IMG/VR virus record: IMGVR_UViG_2667527898_000028
Reading direction: 5' to 3' (one strand)
DNA from: a virus
Lineage: Duplodnaviria > Heunggongvirae > Uroviricota > Caudoviricetes
Length of the DNA stretch: 9,030 bases
In this document: piece after piece, positions 1 to 9,030 of the stretch
Layout: each line of letters opens with the position of its first letter
Numbering within the stretch: position 1 is the first letter of the stretch
The notes under the pieces: generated by a model
Told to the model about the DNA's origin: nothing
The model's database searches: none
Seen by the model: the letters and a program-made list of their open reading frames with translations, nothing else
Position numbers and translations under genes: made by a program

Positions 1-141
1 TTACTGCTTACACTGTAAGAACGCCGCAAACTCCGCTCCCCAGAAGCTCATCCGTATTTCACACAGCGAACCGTGTAGCATCCAGATGATGAGGATTACC
101 GTCACGCAGAACGTGATGGCCGTAAGCGATTTTTGCGACAT
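1..141 (-). CDS. Hok/Gef-family-like type I toxin, small membrane peptide (46 aa)
   Basis: Minus-strand ATG at 141..139 and TAA at 3..1 give MSQKSLTAITFCVTVILIIWMLHGSLCEIRMSFWGAEFAAFLQCKQ. This is a hydrophobic helix followed by SLCEIR and E-x-AAF, the layout I recognise from Hok/Gef/PndA toxins. GGAG sits about 8 nt upstream of the ATG. It is below the ORF-track size cutoff, and the window starts exactly on its stop codon. Family call is from motif memory, not a search. Confidence 0.5.
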   Translation of the reverse strand: MSQKSLTAITFCVTVILIIWMLHGSLCEIRMSFWGAEFAAFLQCKQ

Positions 142-202
142 AGCGCTTGCTCCTTTGTTGGAGAGGCGCTAACCTATCACTTGCTTAAGGTAGATATGTT
201 AG

Positions 203-238
203 GGCCTCGGTTAAACAGAAATGTTTTCCGGGGCCTTT
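203..238. other. Imperfect ~13-bp hairpin with GAAA loop, followed by TTT on the plus strand; candidate regulatory or terminator structure between ogr and the hok-like ORF
   Basis: GGCCTCGG-tt-AAACA-GAAA-TGTTT-t-CCGGGGCC: outer arms 203..210 / 228..235 (one G-U pair), inner arms 213..217 / 222..226. Followed by TTTCC on the plus strand. It lies in the 5' leader of the hok-like ORF, antisense to it. Confidence 0.3.
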
Positions 239-332
239 CCACATCTGGCCTTCGGGTATTCCCTCCGACCATCAGCCGAAAGGCACCCGCGCGTAATCTA
301 TCGCTTTTTTGTTACTCCGGCAATTCTGCCTG

Positions 333-593
333 TTAATTCTGAGGTAAAGGCAAACTCATCTGATTGTTTCCCCTGTGTGAAGCTGGCAGCTCATGCCACG
401 GGATACCTTCTGAAGAGTGAACGCCGGAGGTGTGTTTTGATGTGAATTTATGGAAAGCTTCCAGTGTTGAGAAGCATACGCCGCATTCCAGGTTGTTACA
501 CTGGTAATACTTTTGCCGCACGGTGTTTGAATCATTTTCAGGACGACTGGTGCGGATACGGGCAGATGCGCCACAAAGCGGACAACGGAACAT
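333..593 (-). CDS. ogr: Ogr/Delta-family zinc-finger late-gene transcription activator
   Basis: 86-aa ORF beginning MFRCPLCGASARIRTSR, with a C-x2-C ... C-x4-C cysteine arrangement (C4, C7, C32, C37) typical of P2 Ogr / 186 B / P4 Delta. AGGGAGG sits about 5 nt upstream of the ATG at 593. It lies immediately downstream of D on the same strand, as in P2. Confidence 0.8.
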   Translation of the reverse strand: MFRCPLCGASARIRTSRPENDSNTVRQKYYQCNNLECGVCFSTLEAFHKFTSKHTSGVHSSEGIPWHELPASHRGNNQMSLPLPQN

Positions 594-635
594 AGCGACC
601 TCCCTTAACGTGGTGCTGCTGCTATTCTAAGTTGC

Positions 636-1745
636 TCACTCTGTTTCTGCTATCCATTCCGAGATTTTTGCCTCAAGCTCAAGCTGCGTGGTAAAGCCGC
701 TGTTATCGATGGTGTGCTCGGCTTTTGCAATAATCCAGTCCTGATTATCAATCTCGCTTTTAAATCCTGTTACCGTGCCATGCATTTCGGGGTAGAGTTC
801 TGCACGACCACATGCCAGCGTGATGGAGAATGATGCGGCTCCGCGTTGTAGCTGCTGCCACTTTGCCGCCGCTGCGCGTCTTGCTGCCTGCTCGTTCTGA
901 TAAGTCTTGCGTAACACAAACACATTGCCTTCCGCGCCTTCCATATAATCACCTTCACGGCTGCTGCTTTTCTCCTTTTTGGGTTTTGGCGGTTTGCGGT
1001 GTTTCACGCTGACTTTTTTCTTTTTCCCGTAATTAAGATCAAGCCAGTAAGCGCGTACCCCCGTATACGCTTCGCGGTCAGCAATGCGGAACTGATGGCG
1101 ATCGCCACTGCTGCGCGTGATGGCGAACGATGGCAACGGCTGGCCCTGTGCGTTCACGCCACCGCCTGGCATAATGAATAACAGATTACCGCTTTTTACC
1201 GTGGTGATTGCGCCCAGCATTTCCGCCATGCGCGTAAGGAAGGACATGTCGCTTTCTTCGGTCTGGTCGGCGTGGTCGATTTCGATATCCATCAGCATTT
1301 CGCTGATTTGCGGTTTCAGACCATACCGATGAGCGATGGCGGATACCACACGCTCAACGGTCACATCATGCCAGGACACCTCACGTTTAACGTTAAATTC
1401 ATCCCGAAAATCTGCGCTTCTGGCTGAAACAGTCAGCCTGTCCGGCGGTCCTTCGTGAGCGATTTCATCAACAATGTAAGTGCCTTTTTCTGTCAGCGGT
1501 TCTCCTTTCCAGCCAATGAGAACCGTCAGGCGCGCGCCCCGTGGCGGTAGCTGCAACTGACCATCCGCATCATCCAGCGTGATGGTGAGCTGGTCCGCGT
1601 CAAATCCCCGGTTGTCGGTCAGTGACAGGCTCATCAGGCGCTCTGCCACGCCTGACAGCGTTTTACCCTCCGCGAGAATATCAAAATCCGGCATTTTCAC
1701 GGGGTCTGTGCCCTGACTGAGCAATTGCATGGTGGTATCGGTCAT
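636..1745 (-). CDS. D: P2 gpD-like tail protein (late control gene D family)
   Basis: ORF-track frame 636..1877. The likely true start is the internal Met (MTDTTMQLLSQG...) at about 1745, preceded by GGGAGG; the next Met at 1730 is an alternative. About 369 aa, close to P2 gpD size. Family recognised from overall sequence character and from its position beside ogr. A lysine-rich segment lies at about 960..1030. Confidence 0.85.
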   Translation of the reverse strand: MTDTTMQLLSQGTDPVKMPDFDILAEGKTLSGVAERLMSLSLTDNRGFDADQLTITLDDADGQLQLPPRGARLTVLIGWKGEPLTEKGTYIVDEIAHEGPPDRLTVSARSADFRDEFNVKREVSWHDVTVERVVSAIAHRYGLKPQISEMLMDIEIDHADQTEESDMSFLTRMAEMLGAITTVKSGNLLFIMPGGGVNAQGQPLPSFAITRSSGDRHQFRIADREAYTGVRAYWLDLNYGKKKKVSVKHRKPPKPKKEKSSSREGDYMEGAEGNVFVLRKTYQNEQAARRAAAAKWQQLQRGAASFSITLACGRAELYPEMHGTVTGFKSEIDNQDWIIAKAEHTIDNSGFTTQLELEAKISEWIAETE

Positions 1746-1902
1746 CTGTTCCCTCCCTGTGCGGCATGGTCGCATGTGCGTGCGGAGGGGGTTACTGCTT
1801 TTTGTTGTCGCCGGGTCGGGAGAACGGCGCAGGGGTGAGATTACGCGCGTGGTGGGTGATGATTGTTGCCGAATCATTTAACGGATACAAGGGGCTAAAG
1901 CT
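1746..1902. promoter_or_regulatory. Divergent intergenic region between D (minus) and FI (plus); presumed site of the late promoter for the FI operon
   Basis: 157-nt gap between divergent start codons. I could not find a convincing TGT-N12-ACA Ogr-box or a clear -10 by eye, so this is positional inference only. Confidence 0.3.
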
Positions 1903-3087
1903 ATGAGTGAAACTCGTTTTCATGGTGCCCGTGTTACGGAAAGTACCGACCTGGTAACAGCGATTAACGATGTTGATTCCAGCGTTATCGGTATCGTGGC
2001 AACGGCGGATGATGCGGACGCGAAGCTGTTCCCGCTGAACAAGCCCACACTGCTGACCCGCGTCAATGACGTGCTGGGAAAATGCGGGACAACGGGGACG
2101 CTTTATCGTGCGCTTAAGGCCATCGCAGACCAGGTGAGCACAAAGGTGATCGTCGTTCGCGTGGCTGAACACAAAGAAGAAAACGGAAAGACGCAGGATC
2201 AACTGGTTATCGGTGGTTCTGAATCTGACGGCAGCTATACGGGGATGTATGCGCTGCTTGTTGCAGAGCAGGATGAAAGCATCGGATACCGTCCGCGTAT
2301 TCTGGCCGCGCCGGAGCTGGACACGGAGGCGGTGACAAAATCCCTGTGCGTGATTGCGGGTAAACTGCGCGCGTTTGTGTATGCCACATGTCATGGTTGT
2401 AACACGATGGCTGAGGCGATTACCTACCGCCAGAAATTCAACGAACGTGAGGTGATGCTCTTATGGCCGGACTTCATCGCCTACAACCCGAAAAGTGGCA
2501 AAAACGAAACGTTCCCCGCGCCTGCTTATGCGTGCGGCCTTCGTGCGTACATTGACCATGAGCAGGGCTGGCACAAATCGCTGTCCAACGTTCCGGTTAA
2601 AAATGTGCTGGGGATGTCGAGGCATGTGTTCTGGTCGTTACAGGCCGAAGACAGTGATGCCAACAGCCTCAACAACAAAGAAATCACGACCATTATTCGT
2701 CGTAACGGGTTCCGCTTCTGGGGCAACCGCACACCGGAAACGAACGCCTACATCTTTGAGGTGTATACCCGAACCGCACAGGTGCTGGCTGATTCAATTG
2801 CGGAAGCGCAGTTTGAAACCATCGACAGTCCACTGACACCTGCGAACGTGAAGGATGTTATCAGCGCCATCAGAGCAAAACTGGATTCGCTGGTTACTGT
2901 CGGGAAACTGATTGGTGCGGAGTGCTGGTATGACGTGGTGGATAACAGCACCACGGGTTTACGTCAGGGGCGTGTGCGTATTCGCTACAAATATACGCCC
3001 GTTCCTCCGCTGGAAGACATGGAGCTTTACCAGTCGTTTACTGATGAATTCTTTGGTCCCGCATTTGCGGTGCTGGGAGGTGCCTGA
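1903..3087 (+). CDS. FI: Contractile tail sheath protein (P2 gpFI-like)
   Basis: 394 aa. Motifs remembered from P2 FI: GSYTGMYAL, KLRAFVYA, YRQKFNEREVMLLWPDF, DHEQGWHKSLSNV, RRNGFRFWGNRT, YTRTAQVLAD, YTPVPPLE. AAGGGG sits 8 nt upstream of the ATG. Confidence 0.92.
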   Translation: MSETRFHGARVTESTDLVTAINDVDSSVIGIVATADDADAKLFPLNKPTLLTRVNDVLGKCGTTGTLYRALKAIADQVSTKVIVVRVAEHKEENGKTQDQLVIGGSESDGSYTGMYALLVAEQDESIGYRPRILAAPELDTEAVTKSLCVIAGKLRAFVYATCHGCNTMAEAITYRQKFNEREVMLLWPDFIAYNPKSGKNETFPAPAYACGLRAYIDHEQGWHKSLSNVPVKNVLGMSRHVFWSLQAEDSDANSLNNKEITTIIRRNGFRFWGNRTPETNAYIFEVYTRTAQVLADSIAEAQFETIDSPLTPANVKDVISAIRAKLDSLVTVGKLIGAECWYDVVDNSTTGLRQGRVRIRYKYTPVPPLEDMELYQSFTDEFFGPAFAVLGGA

Positions 3088-3599
3088 TGGCTGTACCAAA
3101 ACATCTTCGCTTTTTTACGTTGTTTGTGGATGGTGAAAACGAAGTGGGTAAAGTGACATCCGTCACGCCACCCAAACTGACGCGCAAAACCGACAGCTAT
3201 CGTGGTGGTGGCATGATGGGGGCGGTAAGTATTGATCTCGGTCTGGACGACTCCGCGCTTGATGCGAGTTTTGTCATGGGGGGAGCTGTTCGTGCGCTGT
3301 TCCTTAAATATGGCGGCACGATTGACGGCACGCTGCTGCGTTTTGCGGGTGAATACTACACCGATGCAGAAAGCGATCTGTATGAAATCGAGATGCGCGG
3401 GCGTCTGACGGAAATTGATATGGGGGAAGCCAAACAGGGCGAAGCCACATCACACACTTACGCTGTCAAAAACACCTACTACAAGCTGATCGTTAACGAT
3501 CGCCCGCTGTGGGAAATCGACCTGTTGAACCACATCTACCGGAAGGACGGCAAGGACATTGTGCCTGACCGTATCCGTTCCGCGCTTGGGCTTGGCTGA
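3087..3599 (+). CDS. FII: Tail tube protein (P2 gpFII-like)
   Basis: 170 aa, beginning MAVPKHLRFF ... PKLTRK ... YRGGGMMGA ... DLGLDD ... RFAG. The start overlaps the FI stop (TGATG) and has a GGGAGG SD, indicating translational coupling. Confidence 0.92.
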   Translation: MAVPKHLRFFTLFVDGENEVGKVTSVTPPKLTRKTDSYRGGGMMGAVSIDLGLDDSALDASFVMGGAVRALFLKYGGTIDGTLLRFAGEYYTDAESDLYEIEMRGRLTEIDMGEAKQGEATSHTYAVKNTYYKLIVNDRPLWEIDLLNHIYRKDGKDIVPDRIRSALGLG

Positions 3600-3612
3600 T
3601 AAGTAATATGCA

Positions 3613-3634
3613 GGCGGCGCAGTGCGTCGCCTTT
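3613..3634 (+). terminator. GC-rich hairpin plus short T-run between FII and E; candidate partial terminator or attenuator
   Basis: GGCGGCGC-AGT-GCGTCGCC (8-bp stem with one G-U pair, 3-nt loop) followed by TTT, then AAGGAG and the E start codon. Confidence 0.3.
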
Positions 3635-3654
3635 GACTGAAAAGGAGACAACTG

Positions 3655-4029
3655 ATGAAAGACATCGATACTGAAACCCGGAATAACACCGTGGCGGATG
3701 ATGTGACGGCAGGTGAGGATATGGCTGTCGAACGTGGCGTAAAACTGACCCGACCAATTGAGCGTGGTGGCGAAAAAATCACGTATGTGGAGATCACCGG
3801 GGCTATTGAGCAGGCTGGATCCCTGCGTGGTCTGTCGCTGTCTGATGTGCTGAATCTGAAAGCGGATACCATGTTTACGCTGTTGCCTCGCGTGACCTCG
3901 CCACGACTGGATGAAGTGATGATTAAAAAAATGTCGTCACGCGATTTTATTCAGTTGTGCGCAGTGGCTGTAAATTTTATGAGCGAGCCAGACTCTGGCG
4001 CGAAGAGCGTGCAGGAGACGGCAGCGTAA
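3655..4029 (+). CDS. E: Tail assembly chaperone (P2 gpE-like)
   Basis: 124-aa ORF directly after FII, with GGAG 7 nt upstream. Position, size and the overlapping -1 frame ORF match the P2 E/E' arrangement. Confidence 0.8.
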   Translation: MKDIDTETRNNTVADDVTAGEDMAVERGVKLTRPIERGGEKITYVEITGAIEQAGSLRGLSLSDVLNLKADTMFTLLPRVTSPRLDEVMIKKMSSRDFIQLCAVAVNFMSEPDSGAKSVQETAA

Positions 4030-4193
4030 TCACCCTGGTGTGCTTTGAGCACATCGAAGATCTGGTGGCGGATATTGCCGCCATTTTTAACTGGTCGCCC
4101 GCCGAAATCTTCATGATGACGCCCGGCGAAGTGGTTAGCTGGCGCGAGCGGGCGGCACTTCGCAGCGGGAATGCAGATAATGAAGACTCTTGA
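3655..4193 (+). CDS. E': E+E' fusion product made by programmed -1 ribosomal frameshifting (predicted)
   Basis: The -1 frame is open from 3927 to the stop at 4191..4193 and overlaps the 3' end of E. The slippery heptamer A_AAT_TTT (3972..3978) is in the correct phase. Predicted fusion is about 179 aa, ending ...NWSPAEIFMMTPGEVVSWRERAALRSGNADNEDS. Confidence 0.55.
3972..3978 (+). other. Candidate -1 frameshift slippery heptamer AAATTTT, with a downstream hairpin
   Basis: Zero-frame codons are GTA AAT TTT ATG, so the heptamer is X_XXY_YYZ in phase. A hairpin GCCAG-ACT-CTGGC (3987..3999), extendable with flanking GCG, starts 5-9 nt downstream. Confidence 0.5.
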
Positions 4194-6987
4194 TATCCGG
4201 GTCGCTTTCAGCGCCGTTGACAGGCTGACCCGGCCTGCCGAAAACGCCCGCCGCCTGATGGGGCAGTTTGGTGACTCCATCCAGCGAACGCAGGGGGCGA
4301 TCAAAAATCTCGAGCGTCAGGCGCGTTCATTTGAGCGCGCCCGTGACGCTGTCAGTAAAGCGGATGCTGGCATCGTGAAAGCACGACGCCAGCTTAACGC
4401 CCTTAATCAGTTACAACGCACGGGTACAGTGCTCAGCGAAAAACAACAAAAGCTGATGCAGCAGTTAAGCACCCGGCTTGAACGCCTGAATGAATCGCGC
4501 ACACGGGAAATTCAGAAAATGCGGGAGCTTGGCGGAGAGCTGAAACGCCACGGCATTTCCCTGACAGGCAGCGATAACACCATCCAGCAGGCCATCAGAC
4601 GCACCGAACAGTACAACAACCAGCTTGAACGCGAACGGCAGGCGCTTGCGCGTGTAACGCGGGCGCGTGAGCGGTATTCGCGCGCGCAGGAAACCGCGGG
4701 AAAACTGAAAACAGGTGGTGCGCTGGCAATTGGTGCTGCAGCGGCTGGCGGCTATGCTGCCGGGCGTTTTTTGCAGCCTGCGATCGGGTTCGGCAAAGAG
4801 ATGTCCCGCGTTCAGGCACTGACGCGAATCGACAAAAACAGCCCGCAGTTTAAGGCGCTGCGTGAGCAGGCGTTAAAACTTGGTTCTGAAACACAGTTTA
4901 CTGCGAGTGATGCCGCCAGTGGGCAGAGCTTTCTGGCAATGGCTGGTTTTACTCCGCAGGCCATTCAGGCCGCATTGCCCGGTGTTCTTAATATGGCGCT
5001 GGCAGGTGGCGTCGAACTCGGCGAGACGGCTGATATAGGCTCCAATATCCTCACACAGTTCAACCTGACAGCCGATCAAATGGACCGGGTTGGCGATACG
5101 CTGACAGCAGCATTCACCCGGACCAATACTGATTTACGCGCGCTGGGCGAAACCATGAAGTATACCGGTCCGGTTGCCGCAAAACTTGGTATCAGTCTTG
5201 AAGAAGCGGCGGCCATGGCCGGGATGCTTGCCAATAATGGTCTTCGCGGAAGCGATGCTGGTACGGCCATGCGCGCAAGTCTGTCCCGCCTTGCATCACC
5301 GCCAAAAGCTGCGGCTGATGCACTGAAAGAGCTGGGGGTGTCAGTTGCTGACGCCAGAGGCAAAATGCGCCCGATGGAGGATGTGCTGCTTGATCTCTAT
5401 AAGGCGACACAAAAATACGGACAGGTGGACCAGGTCTCCTTCTTCAAGGACATCGCCGGAGAAGAGGCGTTCGTTGGTTTGCAGACGCTTGTTGCGGCGG
5501 CTGGTTCAGGAGAACTGCAAAAACTGACCAGAGAATTGCAGGGGGCAAGGGGAGAGGCCGATCGCGTTGCAAAAGTAATGGCCGATAATCTTGATGGAGA
5601 CCTGAAAAATCTCGACAGCGCATGGGAAGGTCTTCGTATTCGCATCAGTGATCTGGTTGACGGTCCGCTGCGTTCTGTCACGCAGTGGCTCACGCGGGTG
5701 CTTGAAAAAATCACCTCGCTGGCGCAGGCCCATCCGGTACTGACGCGCCAGCTACTGATAGCAGGCGGTGCGTTGCTGGCAATGACTGCAACGATTGGCT
5801 CGTTGTCGCTGGTTATTGGGGTGCTTTACGGGAAGCTGGCCACCTTGCGTCTTGGTTTCGACATTCTTACCCGGTCAATGAATGTCATCAGGGTGTTGCC
5901 TGCGCTGTGGGGAATGGTGACGGGTTCTGTTTCTTTGCTGGGTGGTGCTATCGGGGCGCTGTTCAGTCCGGTTGGTCTTATCGTGGCTGCGCTTGCCGGA
6001 GCTGCCGTTCTTATCTGGAAATACTGGGATCCCATCAGGGCATTTTTTGCCGGGGTGTTCAGCGGGATTATGGAAAGGCTGACCCCGTTGCGTGAAACCT
6101 TTGAACGGTTTGGCCCTGTTTTTGACGCAATCGGAAGCGGGATCAGCCTGGTGTTTAACTGGTTTAAATCGCTGTTGTCACCGATGGAGTCCAGCAAGGA
6201 AACGCTGGATAAATGCACCAGTGCTGGCGAGATATTCGGTAACGTTCTTGGCGGTGCGTTACAACTTGTTCTGACGCCTGCAAAAATGCTACTGGATACG
6301 CTGGCGTGGATACTTGAAAAACTTGGCGTCCTTCCGGATGAAGCGGAAAGGGCGCGCAAGAAAATCGAAGACGCACAGCGTGCGGCCATTCTTCAGGACA
6401 AGGTTGCCTTGCTTCAGGGGGACCTGGCGAAAATCAATCCGCCGAAGCCTGTGGAAAATGGCAATGGCACCGGAGGTGATAAACCCAAAGACAACAAACC
6501 GCTCACAGACAGCAATACCGGTACGCTACGCAGACTCAGCAAAATTGCTGATAACACAGGTAAGCTGGTTGATGAGACGAAAAAACGCATTGGCCCCGGC
6601 GATATTGTCTTTAAGAATCTGCCCCGCGCACTTGCTGTTCGTGGGGAGTGGCAGGAGCGGAAGATTGCGCAGGTCAGTAAGCCTGCTTCCGCAATCAACA
6701 TCACACCCGTGGTCCCGACTCCTCTGCCTCTGGCGCTGGTCCCTGTTGTTGCGGCCAGCTCCCGCCCGGTGGCGGAGGCCATACGATCGCCAGTGGCATC
6801 AGTTCCTGCAACTTCCCGTAACCGGGAGCCTGTTGTCTCCGGATTTGGCGGTGAAATTCATGTTCATCTGCATAACGTTGTTACGCAGAATCCCCGCGAA
6901 CTGGCGAAACTGGTCGGTGAAATGGTCAGGGCAGAATTGGAACGACGCGACCGTGCCGGACGTGGCAGTTTTTACGATAAAGATTGA
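4171..6987 (+). CDS. T: Tail tape measure protein (P2 gpT-like)
   Basis: 938 aa. N-terminal charged and predicted coiled-coil region, central tape-measure core (AMAGFTPQAIQAALPGVLNMALAGG ... MKYTGPVAAKLGISLEEAAAMAGMLANNGLRGSDAGTAMRASLSRL), hydrophobic helices at about aa 520-620, and a Pro/Lys-rich C-terminus. An alternative start is ATG 4180. The start overlaps the end of the E' frame. Confidence 0.9.
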   Translation: MQIMKTLDIRVAFSAVDRLTRPAENARRLMGQFGDSIQRTQGAIKNLERQARSFERARDAVSKADAGIVKARRQLNALNQLQRTGTVLSEKQQKLMQQLSTRLERLNESRTREIQKMRELGGELKRHGISLTGSDNTIQQAIRRTEQYNNQLERERQALARVTRARERYSRAQETAGKLKTGGALAIGAAAAGGYAAGRFLQPAIGFGKEMSRVQALTRIDKNSPQFKALREQALKLGSETQFTASDAASGQSFLAMAGFTPQAIQAALPGVLNMALAGGVELGETADIGSNILTQFNLTADQMDRVGDTLTAAFTRTNTDLRALGETMKYTGPVAAKLGISLEEAAAMAGMLANNGLRGSDAGTAMRASLSRLASPPKAAADALKELGVSVADARGKMRPMEDVLLDLYKATQKYGQVDQVSFFKDIAGEEAFVGLQTLVAAAGSGELQKLTRELQGARGEADRVAKVMADNLDGDLKNLDSAWEGLRIRISDLVDGPLRSVTQWLTRVLEKITSLAQAHPVLTRQLLIAGGALLAMTATIGSLSLVIGVLYGKLATLRLGFDILTRSMNVIRVLPALWGMVTGSVSLLGGAIGALFSPVGLIVAALAGAAVLIWKYWDPIRAFFAGVFSGIMERLTPLRETFERFGPVFDAIGSGISLVFNWFKSLLSPMESSKETLDKCTSAGEIFGNVLGGALQLVLTPAKMLLDTLAWILEKLGVLPDEAERARKKIEDAQRAAILQDKVALLQGDLAKINPPKPVENGNGTGGDKPKDNKPLTDSNTGTLRRLSKIADNTGKLVDETKKRIGPGDIVFKNLPRALAVRGEWQERKIAQVSKPASAINITPVVPTPLPLALVPVVAASSRPVAEAIRSPVASVPATSRNREPVVSGFGGEIHVHLHNVVTQNPRELAKLVGEMVRAELERRDRAGRGSFYDKD

Positions 6988-6999
6988 GGAGTCATGGCC

Positions 7000-7488
7000 A
7001 TGATGATGATCTACGGCATGTTTGTTTTTGAGCTGCGCACATTGCCGCATCAGCAGTTACAGCAAAACAAAAGCTGGCGGTATGTGAAAAATGAACGCGT
7101 TAACCGTTCAGCAAGCTGGCAGTATATCGGCGCAGGTGATGATCGCATCGTGCTTTCCGGCGTGCTTTATCCTGAAATTACAGGTGGCGAAGTGTCGCTT
7201 TCATTGCTGACCACGCAGGCATATACAGGACGGCCCTGGCCTCTGATTGATGGTGTCGGGCAGATTTACGGCATGTATGTACTGACTGAAACGAATACGA
7301 CCCGTTCCGAGTTTGATCGCTACGGTAAGGCGAAAAAGATAGAATTTTCACTGACTCTTGAACGCTGTGATGAGGATTTGCGGGAGCGCCTGCAATCCTC
7401 ATCGTTCAGCGATATGTTGTCCGGCTTCAAAGATAAGGTGACATCATCCCTTAATAGCGCGGCCAGCTCAGTTAAGGGGCTGCTCTGA
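7000..7488 (+). CDS. U: Tail protein gpU-like
   Basis: ORF-track frame 6994..7488. GGAG at 6988..6991 is too close to ATG 6994 but about 8 nt from ATG 7000 (MMMIYGMFVFEL...). Size and position after T match P2 gpU. Confidence 0.85.
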   Translation: MMMIYGMFVFELRTLPHQQLQQNKSWRYVKNERVNRSASWQYIGAGDDRIVLSGVLYPEITGGEVSLSLLTTQAYTGRPWPLIDGVGQIYGMYVLTETNTTRSEFDRYGKAKKIEFSLTLERCDEDLRERLQSSSFSDMLSGFKDKVTSSLNSAASSVKGLL

Positions 7489-7564
7489 TTTAACGTATGT
7501 CGCCAATTTCCTGATGAAGGTGACTGGCGACTTGCTGTTGTATGTCCTTCTCAGAAAATTGTTT

Positions 7565-7593
7565 TTGAATAATAAACAACAGGATTTTATAAT
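7565..7593 (+). promoter_or_regulatory. Near-consensus sigma70 promoter for the acetyltransferase cargo gene
   Basis: TTGAAT (7565..7570), 17-nt spacer, TATAAT (7588..7593), in an AT-rich context about 50 nt upstream of the RBS. Confidence 0.45.
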
Positions 7594-7644
7594 CTCTTAA
7601 CCTTATAACATGTGTGGTCTGAAATAATAATTAAGGAGATTATC

Positions 7645-8217
7645 GTGCTGTCTTACCTAATGGCAATTCACTTTGTTTTATTTGGGAACTCTACTAATTT
7701 AAAAAACTTCTGGAAACATGAAGTAATTCGGCGGAAACGTATGGATATCTGGAGGCTTTTAAGAGAGAAAAAGCAGCGTAACAGGAATTTCCTTTTCTGG
7801 TGGCGGTTGGCTAACGAAATGTATATTAATGGTAATAAATTACATAAGAAAGCTGCTAAAAAGTTAAACAATAAAATAATTAACAATTTTGGTTGCGAGA
7901 TTGGACTGGGCGCAAAAATTGGAAAAGGGCTAACAATTCCCCATCACGCTGGAATTGTTGTTCATTTTGCTGTTGATGCTGGTGAAAATCTGGTGTTACG
8001 ACAGAATACTACTATTGGACAGATAGATGGTGACATACCTGGTTCAAGAGTAAAAATTGGTAGTAACGTTGATATCGGAGCTAATTGTTGCATCATTGGA
8101 TTATCTCGTAAAATTGGGGATAATGTAAAAATAGGCGCAATGTCTTTTATAAATAAAGATATACCATCGAACTGCACATATATAACTAAAAAGAACGGTG
8201 TTGTTTTGTATAAATAG
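7645..8217 (+). CDS. Hexapeptide-repeat (left-handed beta-helix) O-acetyltransferase, WcaB / serine-acetyltransferase-like
   Basis: The ORF-track frame starts at GTG 7612. GTG 7645 is preferred because AAGGAG sits 6 nt upstream; ATG 7660 is an alternative. The C-terminal half carries imperfect hexapeptide repeats (GAKIGKGLTIPHHAGIVV, TTIGQIDGDIPGSRVKIGSNVDIGANCCIIG, IGDNVKIGAMSFI) after a basic helical N-terminal part, as in WcaB/CysE-type acetyltransferases. Codon usage is strongly AT-rich compared with the tail genes. Confidence 0.85.
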   Translation: MLSYLMAIHFVLFGNSTNLKNFWKHEVIRRKRMDIWRLLREKKQRNRNFLFWWRLANEMYINGNKLHKKAAKKLNNKIINNFGCEIGLGAKIGKGLTIPHHAGIVVHFAVDAGENLVLRQNTTIGQIDGDIPGSRVKIGSNVDIGANCCIIGLSRKIGDNVKIGAMSFINKDIPSNCTYITKKNGVVLYK

Positions 8218-8227
8218 AGCACATAAA

Positions 8228-8262
8228 GCCATCGATATTTCTATCGATGGCTTTTTCTTTTT
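8228..8262. terminator. Rho-independent terminator between convergent genes, probably bidirectional
   Basis: Perfect 10-bp stem GCCATCGATA / TATCGATGGC with TTTC loop, followed by TTTTTCTTTTT on the plus strand. It sits between the acetyltransferase stop (8217) and the tfa stop (8261..8263). Confidence 0.75.
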
Positions 8263-8754
8263 ATTGTGGGGCGACTGGCCACTCAATATCTGCTGCTACT
8301 GTTGTATCAACACGATGCAACAATACTCGATATGTCTTCCATGCAGCCAGTAACGATGTCTCTTCCTCCGTCGCAATATCTAAATCTATAGCATCCTGAA
8401 GTGGTGCAATATGCTCACTGGCTACCTGCATCAGGCTGTTTTTTGTTTCTTCCGCCTCCCTTATCCGAAATAGTTTTTCTGCTTCTGCATCTTTCACCCA
8501 GGATGTGCCGTTCCACTTCTGATACTCTCCATACGGCGACAACCAGGTAACATTTTCCGGTAACGGACCGAGTTCAGAAATAAATAACGAGTCCCCTGAT
8601 GCCACGTCATAAACCGTTTTACCCCGATGGTCTTCAACGAGATGCCACGATGCCTCATCACTGTTGAAAACAACCACGAAGCCAGCCGGAATATCTGGGC
8701 AATATCAGTACTGTTTGCAGGCAAACCTGTATGAAGTGGAATGGCACAAGAGAC
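8261..8754 (-). pseudogene. Tail fibre assembly protein (Tfa/gpG family), frameshifted and 5'-truncated
   Basis: The C-terminal part (ORF 8261..8677) ends ...[26 protein letters not shown], the conserved Tfa C-terminus. Upstream, the homology continues in another frame (ORF 8494..8724, ...[12 protein letters not shown]) and switches frame at about 8696..8700, in a C-run, to ...[18 protein letters not shown]. The open frame ends at a stop at 8755..8757, so the usual N-terminal 30-40 aa are absent. Confidence 0.7.
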
Positions 8755-9030
8755 TTACAAAAGAATCAGGCAAAACGCCTGATTGATGAGAGCCCCGAAC
8801 TACTGAAATCTGTCGTCAAATTTGCGCTGGTAACTGTTCTGAGAAAGTCGAACATCATAAATCTGGAGTGGCAACAGATTGACATGCAGCGACAAGTTGC
8901 CAGGGTGAATCCAGAAGATAGCAAATCAAACCGCGCCATTGGTGTGGCGCTGAACGATACCGCCTCTAAAGTGTTGCGTGATCAAACAGGCAAGCATCAC
9001 AAATGTGGGTGTACATACCAGGGCGGCTAA
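8731..9030 (+). pseudogene. Tyrosine-integrase fragment (start of the catalytic domain only)
   Basis: 99-aa ORF containing [47 protein letters not shown], the Arg-box / L-x-W-x-x-I-D region at the start of phage integrase catalytic domains. It lacks the N-terminal DNA-binding part and the downstream H-x-x-R ... Y catalytic residues, and ends ...[12 protein letters not shown] at a stop at the window edge. Confidence 0.6.

Follow-up and report, generated by a model that had tools for sequence, protein, structure and literature searches.

A divergent D/FI gene order is the established layout of P88-like P2-family prophages and may leave D and FI under one shared late-activator site

In phage P2 the genes FI, FII, E, E', T, U, D and ogr lie on one strand and in that order. 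In the viral DNA analysed here, a stretch of 9,030 nucleotides that we call the window, the ORF listing and Pfam place D, ogr and a hok-like reading frame on the minus strand and FI-FII-E/E'-T-U on the plus strand, with the start codons of D and FI pointing away from each other across 157 bp. Turning round the segment from about 1.8 to 7.5 kb restores the P2 order. A first-pass annotation had described this divergence correctly and had noted that inverting the FI-U block alone would do so, leaving the question of whether such an arrangement is an inversion inside a prophage remnant or the mark of a lineage with a different organisation. The second of these is the case: the flipped FI-U block is the standard, long-fixed order of a clade of working P2-related phages rather than a local accident, and it is ordinary because it is the normal gene order of the whole P88-like clade. 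The window carries the tail module of a P2-family prophage of the P88-like type (Xuanwuvirus), together with its right end, at the E. coli leuZ tRNA site. In this lineage D-ogr(-hok) retain the P2 orientation beside the attachment site, and FI-FII-E/E'-T-U are fixed opposite to it. As the finding is one of gene order and not of a statistical signal, chance is not at issue. The account that we prefer, and in which we have high confidence, joins this lineage-fixed layout to a proposed ancient inversion and a predicted shared activator site.

All eight tail genes are intact within the window according to the ORF listing and Pfam. The minus-strand group begins with a 46-aa ORF of the hok/gef toxin family (1..141, HOK_GEF E=3.7e-7), the final gene before the leuZ-side end of the prophage, which is followed in the source contig by tRNA-Leu/Cys/Gly; the annotations of P88 and E. 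coli 55989 include the same gene. The sole Rfam match is IS009, inside tfa, with no hok/sok-type RNA reaching the gathering threshold. Next comes ogr (333..593, minus, 86 aa, Ogr_Delta E=5e-14), a zinc-finger late-gene activator whose gene, in every related locus, lies downstream of D and on its strand. The tail/baseplate hub gene D (636..1745, minus, 369 aa, Phage_GPD E=1.6e-17) sits in a long ORF that extends to 1877, and a start at ATG 1745, preceded by the ribosome-binding site GGGAGGG, fits the 369-aa gene calls in relatives; its product shares 96-98.6% identity with D of Xuanwuvirus and 48% with that of P2. On the plus strand FI (1903..3087, 394 aa, Pfam sheath domains) encodes a tail sheath 94-98% identical to that of Xuanwuvirus and 45% to that of P2, and FII (3087..3599, 170 aa, Phage_tube E=4e-45) the tail tube. 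The tail assembly chaperone gene E (3655..4029) has a weak match to Phage_TAC_7 (E=4.7e-4, at 20.6 bits below the Pfam cut-off of 25); E', a plus-strand chaperone frame read from the sequence, overlaps it in the -1 frame and ends at 4193, and in relatives the GpE domain is called on a 51-aa downstream ORF. A_AAT_TTT at 3972-3978 is a candidate slippery site for an E/E' -1 frameshift. The tape-measure gene T (4180..6987, plus, alternative ATG at 4171, 935 aa, PhageMin_Tail E=1.6e-56) has its exact protein in 161 blocks of the collection, and the places listed were leuZ prophages in six cases of six. The tail protein gene U (6994..7488, plus, Phage_P2_GpU E=3e-39) closes the block that runs the other way in P2, and the similarity to Xuanwuvirus phages stops at 7494. 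The sign of the GC skew flips at about 1800, as expected at a strand switch.

How widely the divergent layout is shared was judged from phages and from prophages. Positions 1-7494 are collinear in one piece, at 91-95.5% identity, with P88, P884B11, 500465-2, phiSM, PhiR44_2 and Chuche, so that the synteny comparison proposed in the first-pass annotation came out on the side of a lineage. Among phage records with D at least 62% identical that were also present among the best 60 FI matches (CP052639.1, with D at 72.8%, falls outside that list), D and FI are adjacent on opposite strands in 47 of 47 that were cross-checked. These divergent phages include Xuanwuvirus, Reginaelenavirus, Senquatrovirus and others, and for SEN5 and Kp4871-3 the arrangement was confirmed gene by gene. 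A genome scan with peptides from the D protein of the window added prophage loci from more than 20 Enterobacterales genera; all 43 in which FI is present are divergent, with spacers of 127-259 bp, and since the search used peptides from D these loci cover relatives of this D only. At least 80% of the window is carried as a single collinear piece by 1332 complete E. coli genomes, and about a quarter of the complete genomes of that species hold its variant; P88-like prophages are thus very common in E. coli. Where D is at most 52% identical the order is canonical, as in P2, Kapieceevirus, Wadgaonvirus and ENT90, and FI and D share a strand in vB_YenM_42.18, ENT90, ST13-OXA48phi12.1, ST512-KPC3phi13.2, 500465-1 and P2. 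The layout therefore follows the protein phylogeny, inverted at D identities of 62% and above and canonical at 52% and below.

Practice at the ICTV sets a genus at about 70% or more nucleotide identity over the genome. Membership of Xuanwuvirus is supported by the 91-95.5% identity across the shared phage DNA, judged on the 7.5-kb tail module with the full prophage seen in close relatives, and by P2-type structural genes whose FI-U block is opposite to D-ogr, as in that genus. Members of the wider group are functional: P88 could be induced and lyses new hosts (PMC5285337), Citrobacter phage phiSM is released spontaneously and lysogenises K-12 (PMC6456863), and both form plaques; the related Serratia prophage PP4 produces particles (PMC9826266). 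Together with the relatives SEN4/SEN5 and KSP20/PP4, these intact phages, inducible or spontaneously released, carry the divergent D/FI pair. That is the outcome which the first-pass annotation had named as refuting an inversion within a remnant, and the idea is not supported.

To the right of U lies a cargo 'moron' (7565..8254, plus, about 35% GC) with its own sigma-70-like promoter (7565-7593) and hairpin terminator (8225-8254), the only part of the window for which the sigma-70 and terminator scan was useful. It encodes a hexapeptide acetyltransferase (7612/7645-8217, plus, Pfam) to which PADLOC gave no match, and it occupies the G/FI (tfa/FI) cargo slot that the first-pass annotation had assigned to it; in P2 the same slot holds fun(Z), and in P88 an invertase and alternative fibre genes. 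Beyond it tfa, the equivalent of P2 G (8261..8743, approximate end, minus, Caudo_TAP E=4e-41), lacks its 5' part, and a three-way alignment of the window, E. coli 55989 and SCU-124 places the change from the prophage copy to a DLP12-remnant copy between 8591 and 8670. The integrase fragment at 8731..9030 (plus) belongs to the DLP12 remnant beside argU, being 99.7% identical to the 'int/tfa junction by tRNA-Arg in SCU-124, and is not part of the P88-like prophage. Past the window the source contig runs into argU, folD, cysS and purEK. As the truncation of tfa coincides with a junction that would imply a deletion of about 1.4 Mb of chromosome, the contig is probably chimeric, and the jump from tfa to argU/DLP12 is most likely an assembly chimera. 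Misassembly, which had been raised for the inversion itself, does not apply at the D/FI and U/cargo junctions but does bear on tfa/'int at about 8.6-8.74 kb, outside the region first annotated. Such a contig calls for caution when prophage decay or chromosome structure is read from this draft assembly.

If D has long been separated from the FI operon, how is it expressed? The spacer between D and FI is conserved across 44 unique sequences and contains a dyad, TGTTGT-N12-AGAAC (1803..1825), with a core TGT-N12-AGA at 1806-1823 and its centre at 1814.5. Every aligned locus keeps it as GTTGTC-N10-GACAAC or in a variant form, and on sequence conservation, spacing and analogy with P2 it is predicted to be an Ogr-type activator site common to two divergent promoters. 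On the minus strand an extended -10, TGcGACCAT (1766..1774), is the predicted leftward promoter for D(-ogr), and on the plus strand GATGAT (1858..1863) is the predicted -10 of the FI operon late promoter, the equivalent of PF; both hexamers lie at +44..+49 from the dyad centre in 30 of 30 unique spacers. Over the same 30 loci the D-side footprint keeps TG in 27-28, the A at hexamer position 2 in all and the T at position 6 in 28, at invariant spacing, and the FI side reads, at its fixed spacing, G in 25, A in 28, A or T, T in 21, A in 28 and T in 28. A TG-extended -10 such as that at D could also function without an activator. The predicted FI start is about 55.5 nt from the dyad centre, and in P2 late promoters this distance is 55-57 nt. 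Ogr/delta-dependent late promoters have a poor -35 and a dyad centred about 55 nt upstream of the start, and at sequence level both predicted -10 elements of the spacer put the dyad centre at -55.5. In canonical relatives a terminator hairpin, not a leftward -10, lies upstream of the PF dyad.

The site had escaped pattern searches. A late-promoter consensus TGT-N12-ACA has been cited (PMC3931495), and a strict scan of the window for it gave a sole match, inside FI at 2625, no better than chance. The scan missed the dyad because the right half-site in the window is AGA, whereas relatives have ACA; the annotated P2 sites are imperfect too and fail the strict pattern, and comparative footprinting alone revealed the dyad, whose left half agrees with the P2 sites annotated in NC_001895. 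A generic sigma-70/terminator scan found nothing in the D-FI spacer, as expected if its promoters depend on an activator. In the 48.7-kb locus of E. coli 55989 the exact motif TGTTGT-N12-AGAAC occurs only twice, at D/FI and at P/O, and with at most one mismatch allowed there are 3 matches, where 0.8 would be expected. In this phage the P/O spacer likewise has -10-like hexamers at +44..+50 on both sides, and in the P2 annotation the PO start lies 55 nt, and the PP start 56 nt, from one activator site.

These features suggest how the layout may have arisen. A single ancient inversion, with one breakpoint a short way upstream of the PF activator site and the other between U and D, would have carried the symmetric site of the FI promoter along with the block, so that it came to adjoin D, and a new extended -10 would then have arisen on the D side at the mirror-image distance. 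One Ogr-type site about 55.5 nt from both predicted starts would now drive FI-U rightward and D(-ogr) leftward, much as the single PP/PO site of P2 serves two divergent operons, and D would be separated from the FI-U transcript yet answer to the same late activator. A single origin of the inversion is suggested by the gap in identity between 62% and 52% rather than by a tree. The first-pass annotation had D uncoupled from the FI operon promoter, which holds for co-transcription but probably not for regulation, as D seems to use the FI activator site and so would still be under late control. On balance we favour, with some reserve, the view that the spacer between D and FI acts as a second Ogr-dependent late promoter firing in both directions, made by an ancient inversion that brought the PF site beside D, and that it marks a large and unremarked clade of the Peduoviridae. 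The clade in question takes in Xuanwuvirus, Reginaelenavirus, Senquatrovirus and many Enterobacterales prophages.

Other explanations of the arrangement were weighed. A recent local inversion of FI-U inside a decaying remnant has in its favour that the phage genes of the window break off in a shortened tfa, with an integrase fragment after it. That decayed look, however, stems from the junction with a different chromosomal locus. In the nearest relatives, at 99.84-99.89% identity, the rest of the prophage continues after tfa, the eight tail genes of the window are undamaged, and complete functional phages share the orientation with more than 1300 complete genomes of E. coli, so that this reading is very improbable. 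An assembly error at the D/FI or U/cargo junction has a still smaller, practically negligible, probability; the source is a short-read draft contig that seems chimeric elsewhere, yet independent complete genomes, and phage genomes sequenced from virions, reproduce both junctions to the base, and the spacer between D and FI is conserved in dozens of distinct sequences. We give hardly any credence either to the idea that FI-U is a reversible switch driven by a Gin/Cin/Pin-like invertase and caught in one state. A DNA invertase gene does adjoin the U end of the block in P88, but there it neighbours duplicated fibre/tfa genes, its usual substrate; no invertase stands at that position in the window or in SEN5, no inverted repeat pairs the spacer at 1746-1902 with the region at 7489-7650, and a single orientation is seen in all of the roughly 90 phage and prophage loci checked. 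An inversion mediated by an IS was ruled out, as neither the window nor P88 has an IS at either junction; those carried by some relatives disrupt genes elsewhere.

A further alternative accepts the lineage layout and differs over regulation alone, holding that the D-ogr promoter works from its TG-extended -10 without the activator and that D is uncoupled from late control. Extended -10 promoters can operate without a -35 element or an activator, ogr of P2 has its own promoter, and early transcription of D-ogr would supply Ogr. An independent promoter would have no need, however, of a -10-to-dyad distance that is invariant and equal to that of the FI side in every one of the 30 spacers; the hexamers (GACCAT, AACTAT, GATCCT) are weak, and the same geometry recurs at P/O. 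We regard this alternative as unlikely, though worth keeping in view, and retain the shared activator site as the preferred reading.

A literature search on P88-like and SEN4/5 phages and on FETUD gene order turned up no mention of the inversion or of a D-FI promoter. For annotation, divergent D/FI in a P88-like prophage is no reason to mark the element as rearranged, decayed or misassembled. The mirror-symmetric, conserved spacer also offers a testable example of how a symmetric activator site could let an inversion split an operon while co-regulation is retained.

Among named systems the closest is Xuanwuvirus (P88, P884B11, 500465-2 and phiSM; Peduoviridae), with order and strands identical from hok to U; the full P88 map is the P2 map except for the flipped FI-U block, and the cargo after U differs, being a DNA invertase with an invertible fibre/tfa cassette in P88 and the low-GC acetyltransferase in the window and the 1332 E. 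coli genomes. SEN4/SEN5 (Senquatrovirus), Klebsiella 3LV2017 and Kp48xx (Reginaelenavirus), Enterobacter phiT5282H and Serratia KSP20 have the same divergent D/FI, with the same conserved dyad in the roughly 130-190 bp between the two genes, and are more distant, with D 62-76% and FI 55-75% identical and with other hosts and cargo. Invertible segments of the Gin/Cin/Pin type have flanking inverted crossover sites and occur in both orientations; the window has no flanking inverted repeat, and all loci checked show a single orientation. In Stenotrophomonas Smp131 the P2-like late operons are rearranged with promoters of the TGT-N12-ACA type kept, including a shared PP'/PO' site (PMC3931495); its rearrangement differs in that members are swapped between the V and F operons, and it is distant (D 35% identical). 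With P2 the window shares the same eight genes, D-ogr by the attachment site, the cargo slot between G/tfa and the tail genes and the activator dyad upstream of FI. Canonical FETUD has FI to D co-directional in one PF unit, and here FI-U is inverted and D lies outside the FI transcription unit, opposite to and divergent from FI, at a protein identity of only 33-48%; the U stop and D start overlap in P2, whereas D in the window has a ribosome-binding site of its own and, as predicted, a promoter. The nearest parallel to the spacer is PP/PO of P2, where the two starts, at 3016 and 3127, lie about 55 nt away on either side of a single site at 3057-3087, a geometry matched by the D/FI spacer of the window, with predicted starts, and by the phage's own P/O spacer. 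P2 confines this shared-site design to P and O; the lineage of the window would have a second copy of it, at D and FI.

From six-frame ORFs and Pfam matches, a hok/gef ORF (1-141), the late activator gene ogr (333-593) and D (636-1745; 369 aa) were placed on the minus strand of the window. They are followed on the plus strand by the sheath gene FI (1903-3087), the tube gene FII (3087-3599), the tail assembly chaperone gene E (3655-4029) with the overlapping E' ORF in the -1 frame (end 4193), the tape measure gene T (4171/4180-6987), the tail protein gene U (6994-7488) and a hexapeptide acetyltransferase gene (7612/7645-8217). The right end holds tfa (8261-~8743) on the minus strand and an integrase fragment (8731-9030) on the plus strand. 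The ORF for D, at 413 codons, is too long at its start. A GGGAGGG ribosome-binding site precedes the ATG at 1745, and translation from there yields the 369 aa annotated by gene callers in relatives; measured from this ATG, the divergent D and FI start codons are 157 bp apart. D is intact in the window, but this widespread prophage also has copies defective in it: in E. coli 55989 (20636-21489 of L002, a 48.7-kb locus of prophage and flanks) and in some draft genomes (locus L006), D is cut to 266 aa plus a pseudogene fragment. Within E, 50 nt upstream of the stop codon, the heptamer A_AAT_TTT (3972-3978) is a candidate -1 slippery site; slippage there would connect E with the GpE-domain E' frame. 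The heptamer differs from the P2 E/E' slippery site, T_TTT_TTG.

In the P2 record FI, FII, E/E', T, U, D and ogr all lie on one strand, followed by attP. The first-pass annotation noted that D-ogr on the minus strand against FI-U on the plus strand departs from this order, and that flipping the FI-U block would give it back; the window ORFs and the P2 record confirm both points, the stretch to be flipped being ~1.8-7.5 kb. Its suggestion of a local inversion within a prophage remnant is wrong, because functional phages share the layout, the very outcome it had set as grounds against such an inversion, and its other proposal, a lineage with a different organisation, is right: complete phages, prophages and E. 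coli genomes have the divergent D/FI arrangement. By megablast against phage genomes, window 1-7494 aligns as a single collinear piece, at 91-95.5% identity, with the complete Xuanwuvirus members 500465-2, Citrobacter phiSM, P884B11, P88, PhiR44_2 and Chuche. P88 is inducible, and other strains were lysed by the induced phage (PMC5285337); phiSM is released spontaneously, forms plaques and lysogenises K-12 (PMC6456863); and particles are produced by a related Serratia prophage (PMC9826266). The P88 map (L001) reads Q and P, then O, N, M, L, X, lysis, R, S, V, W, J, I, H and G, an invertase cassette, the flipped U, T, E', E, FII and FI, and D, ogr and hok, which is the P2 order except for the reversed FI-U block. 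The cassette (8251-10955), a DNA invertase with duplicated, oppositely oriented fibre-tip/tfa segments, is a Gin/Cin-like host-range switch. In PMC6456863 a long non-contractile tail, as in siphoviruses, is ascribed to phiSM, and phiNP is called a myovirus; since the phiSM genome, 94.9% identical to the window, carries sheath and tube genes of the P2 type, these micrograph assignments may have been swapped.

The arrangement is widespread. At least 80% of the window is present, in one collinear place, in 1332 complete E. coli genomes. In E. coli 55989 the same module, acetyltransferase included, belongs to a long prophage that adjoins leuZ and continues with H, I, J, W, V, S, R, lysis, head and replication genes. 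A scan for prophages with the window D protein, using one genome per bacterial species, yielded 47 loci from over 20 Enterobacterales genera, among them Salmonella, Serratia, Symbiopectobacterium, Erwinia, Pantoea, Klebsiella, Kosakonia, Brenneria, Edwardsiella and Rouxiella. FI is present in 43 of these, and in each of the 43 the genes FI-FII-E-T-U are on the other strand from D-ogr, with the FI start 127-259 bp from D. Deposited phages were searched by tblastn with D and with FI and compared record by record: in 47/47 records listed for both queries whose D is at least 62% identical, D and FI are neighbours on opposite strands. These cover Xuanwuvirus, Enterobacter phiT5282H, Serratia KSP20, ST16-OXA48phi5.4, Klebsiella 3LV2017/Kp48xx (Reginaelenavirus) and Salmonella SEN4/SEN5 (Senquatrovirus); for SEN5 and Kp4871-3 a gene-by-gene inspection gave the same result. 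Where D identity is 52% or lower, the relatives examined carry D and FI on the same strand in P2 order (P2, Kapieceevirus ST512-KPC3phi13.2, Wadgaonvirus 500465-1, Yersinia vB_YenM_42.18, ENT90 and ST13-OXA48phi12.1). On these protein comparisons layout tracks relatedness, with a gap in D identity between 62% and 52%, and this fits a single old inversion inherited by one clade, whose monophyly the gap would indicate.

An invertase-driven flip is rejected, since no inverted repeat was found pairing the D-FI spacer with the region past U, the orientation is identical in every locus examined, and neither the window nor SEN5 has an invertase at the U end. Misassembly at the block junctions is likewise excluded, because both recur in independent complete genomes. 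The right end of the window is a different matter, and it is this end that gives the impression of a remnant. One draft contig, CCCF01000075.1 (GCA_000941435.1; 17,989 bp), contains the whole window at 100% identity; it runs purK-purE-lpxH-ppiB-cysS-ybcI-ybcJ-folD-argU-'int-tfa and then acetyltransferase-U...FI-D-ogr-hok-leuZ-cysT-glyW. A three-way alignment with 55989 and SCU-124 revealed two sources of tfa: up to ~8590 it is the 55989-like prophage copy and from ~8671 the SCU-124-like fragment of the argU-side DLP12 remnant, separated by an 80-nt identical stretch (8591-8670). With gene strands read from the contig and the argU and leuZ flanks placed on the K-12 map, both flanks point the same way along the K-12 backbone, so a genuine join would delete ~1.4 Mb including the terminus and not be viable. 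In the nearest relatives, which match 1-8743 at 99.84-99.89% identity, tfa is followed by a complete set of baseplate and fibre genes. The contig is thus very probably a short-read chimera through the tfa repeat shared by the argU/DLP12 locus and the leuZ prophage; otherwise the join would mark a large rearrangement. The tfa junction (within 8476-9030) lies outside 636-7488 and leaves the D/FI observation unaffected. Wholly within the tfa coding sequence, at 8298-8496 (-), there is a match to Rfam IS009 (RF02111; 177 bits), an RNA family that here may simply be a conserved gene fragment.

Between U and tfa, the acetyltransferase forms a moron (7565-8254) of the hexapeptide (LbetaH) family, with ~35% GC against ~54% in the tail genes, its own predicted sigma-70-like promoter (7565-7593) and a strong predicted hairpin terminator with a 13-bp stem (8225-8254). 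The protein falls under every NCBIfam cut-off (best matches EpsC-, CysE- and WcaB-like) and has no PADLOC match. More than 1300 E. coli genomes retain the gene, which also adjoins tfa in the unrelated phages JL22 and Ro157c2YLVW. Its assignment by the first-pass annotation to the tfa/FI cargo slot is borne out, as the same position holds fun(Z) in P2 and the invertase cassette in P88.

The divergent layout is already known, since it is a feature of an established phage genus and can be read from annotated genomes in public records. The literature searched makes no mention of the FI-U inversion or of a shared-activator spacer, and the latter offers P2 specialists a small, testable point. Alignment of 44 unique D-FI spacers gave three conserved elements at invariant spacing: a dyad predicted to be an Ogr-type activator site (1803-1825; TGTTGT-N12-AGAAC, core TGT-N12-AGA centred at 1814.5; GTTGTC-N10-GACAAC in many loci), a predicted -10 towards FI (1858-1863; GATGAT, consensus GA(T/A)TAT) and a predicted TG-extended -10 towards D (1774-1766, minus strand; TGCGACCAT, consensus TGnAAnnAT). 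Both hexamers stand at +44..+49 from the dyad centre in 30/30 unique single-anchor sequences, which puts that centre ~55.5 nt from each predicted start point. Just upstream of the D-side element lies a conserved CGCGCGCG-type tract (1775-1786) that occupies offsets of ~+33..+40 relative to the dyad, and the P/O spacer carries a comparable tract on its P side (L002 41203-41212).

We propose that the inversion brought the symmetric activator site of the late promoter PF beside D, and that a new D-side -10 turned the spacer into a second bidirectional late promoter; D would have been separated from co-transcription with FI-U, yet would have retained the same activator. Conservation and analogy suggest that D is probably under the late activator that serves FI-U. 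An extended -10 might instead drive D independently of any activator, which we consider rather unlikely. In canonical relatives the PF dyad is preceded by a terminator hairpin, with no leftward -10 in that place. In the 55989 locus the exact TGTTGT-N12-AGAAC motif has just two occurrences, one in the D/FI spacer and one in the P/O spacer, and the latter too has -10-like hexamers on both sides, at +44..+50. The published consensus of the four Ogr-dependent P2 late promoters is TGT-N12-ACA (PMC3931495). The TGTTGT half-site is found in all three annotated P2 sites, and in the P2 record a single activator site lies 55 and 56 nt from the start points of the divergent late promoters PO and PP.
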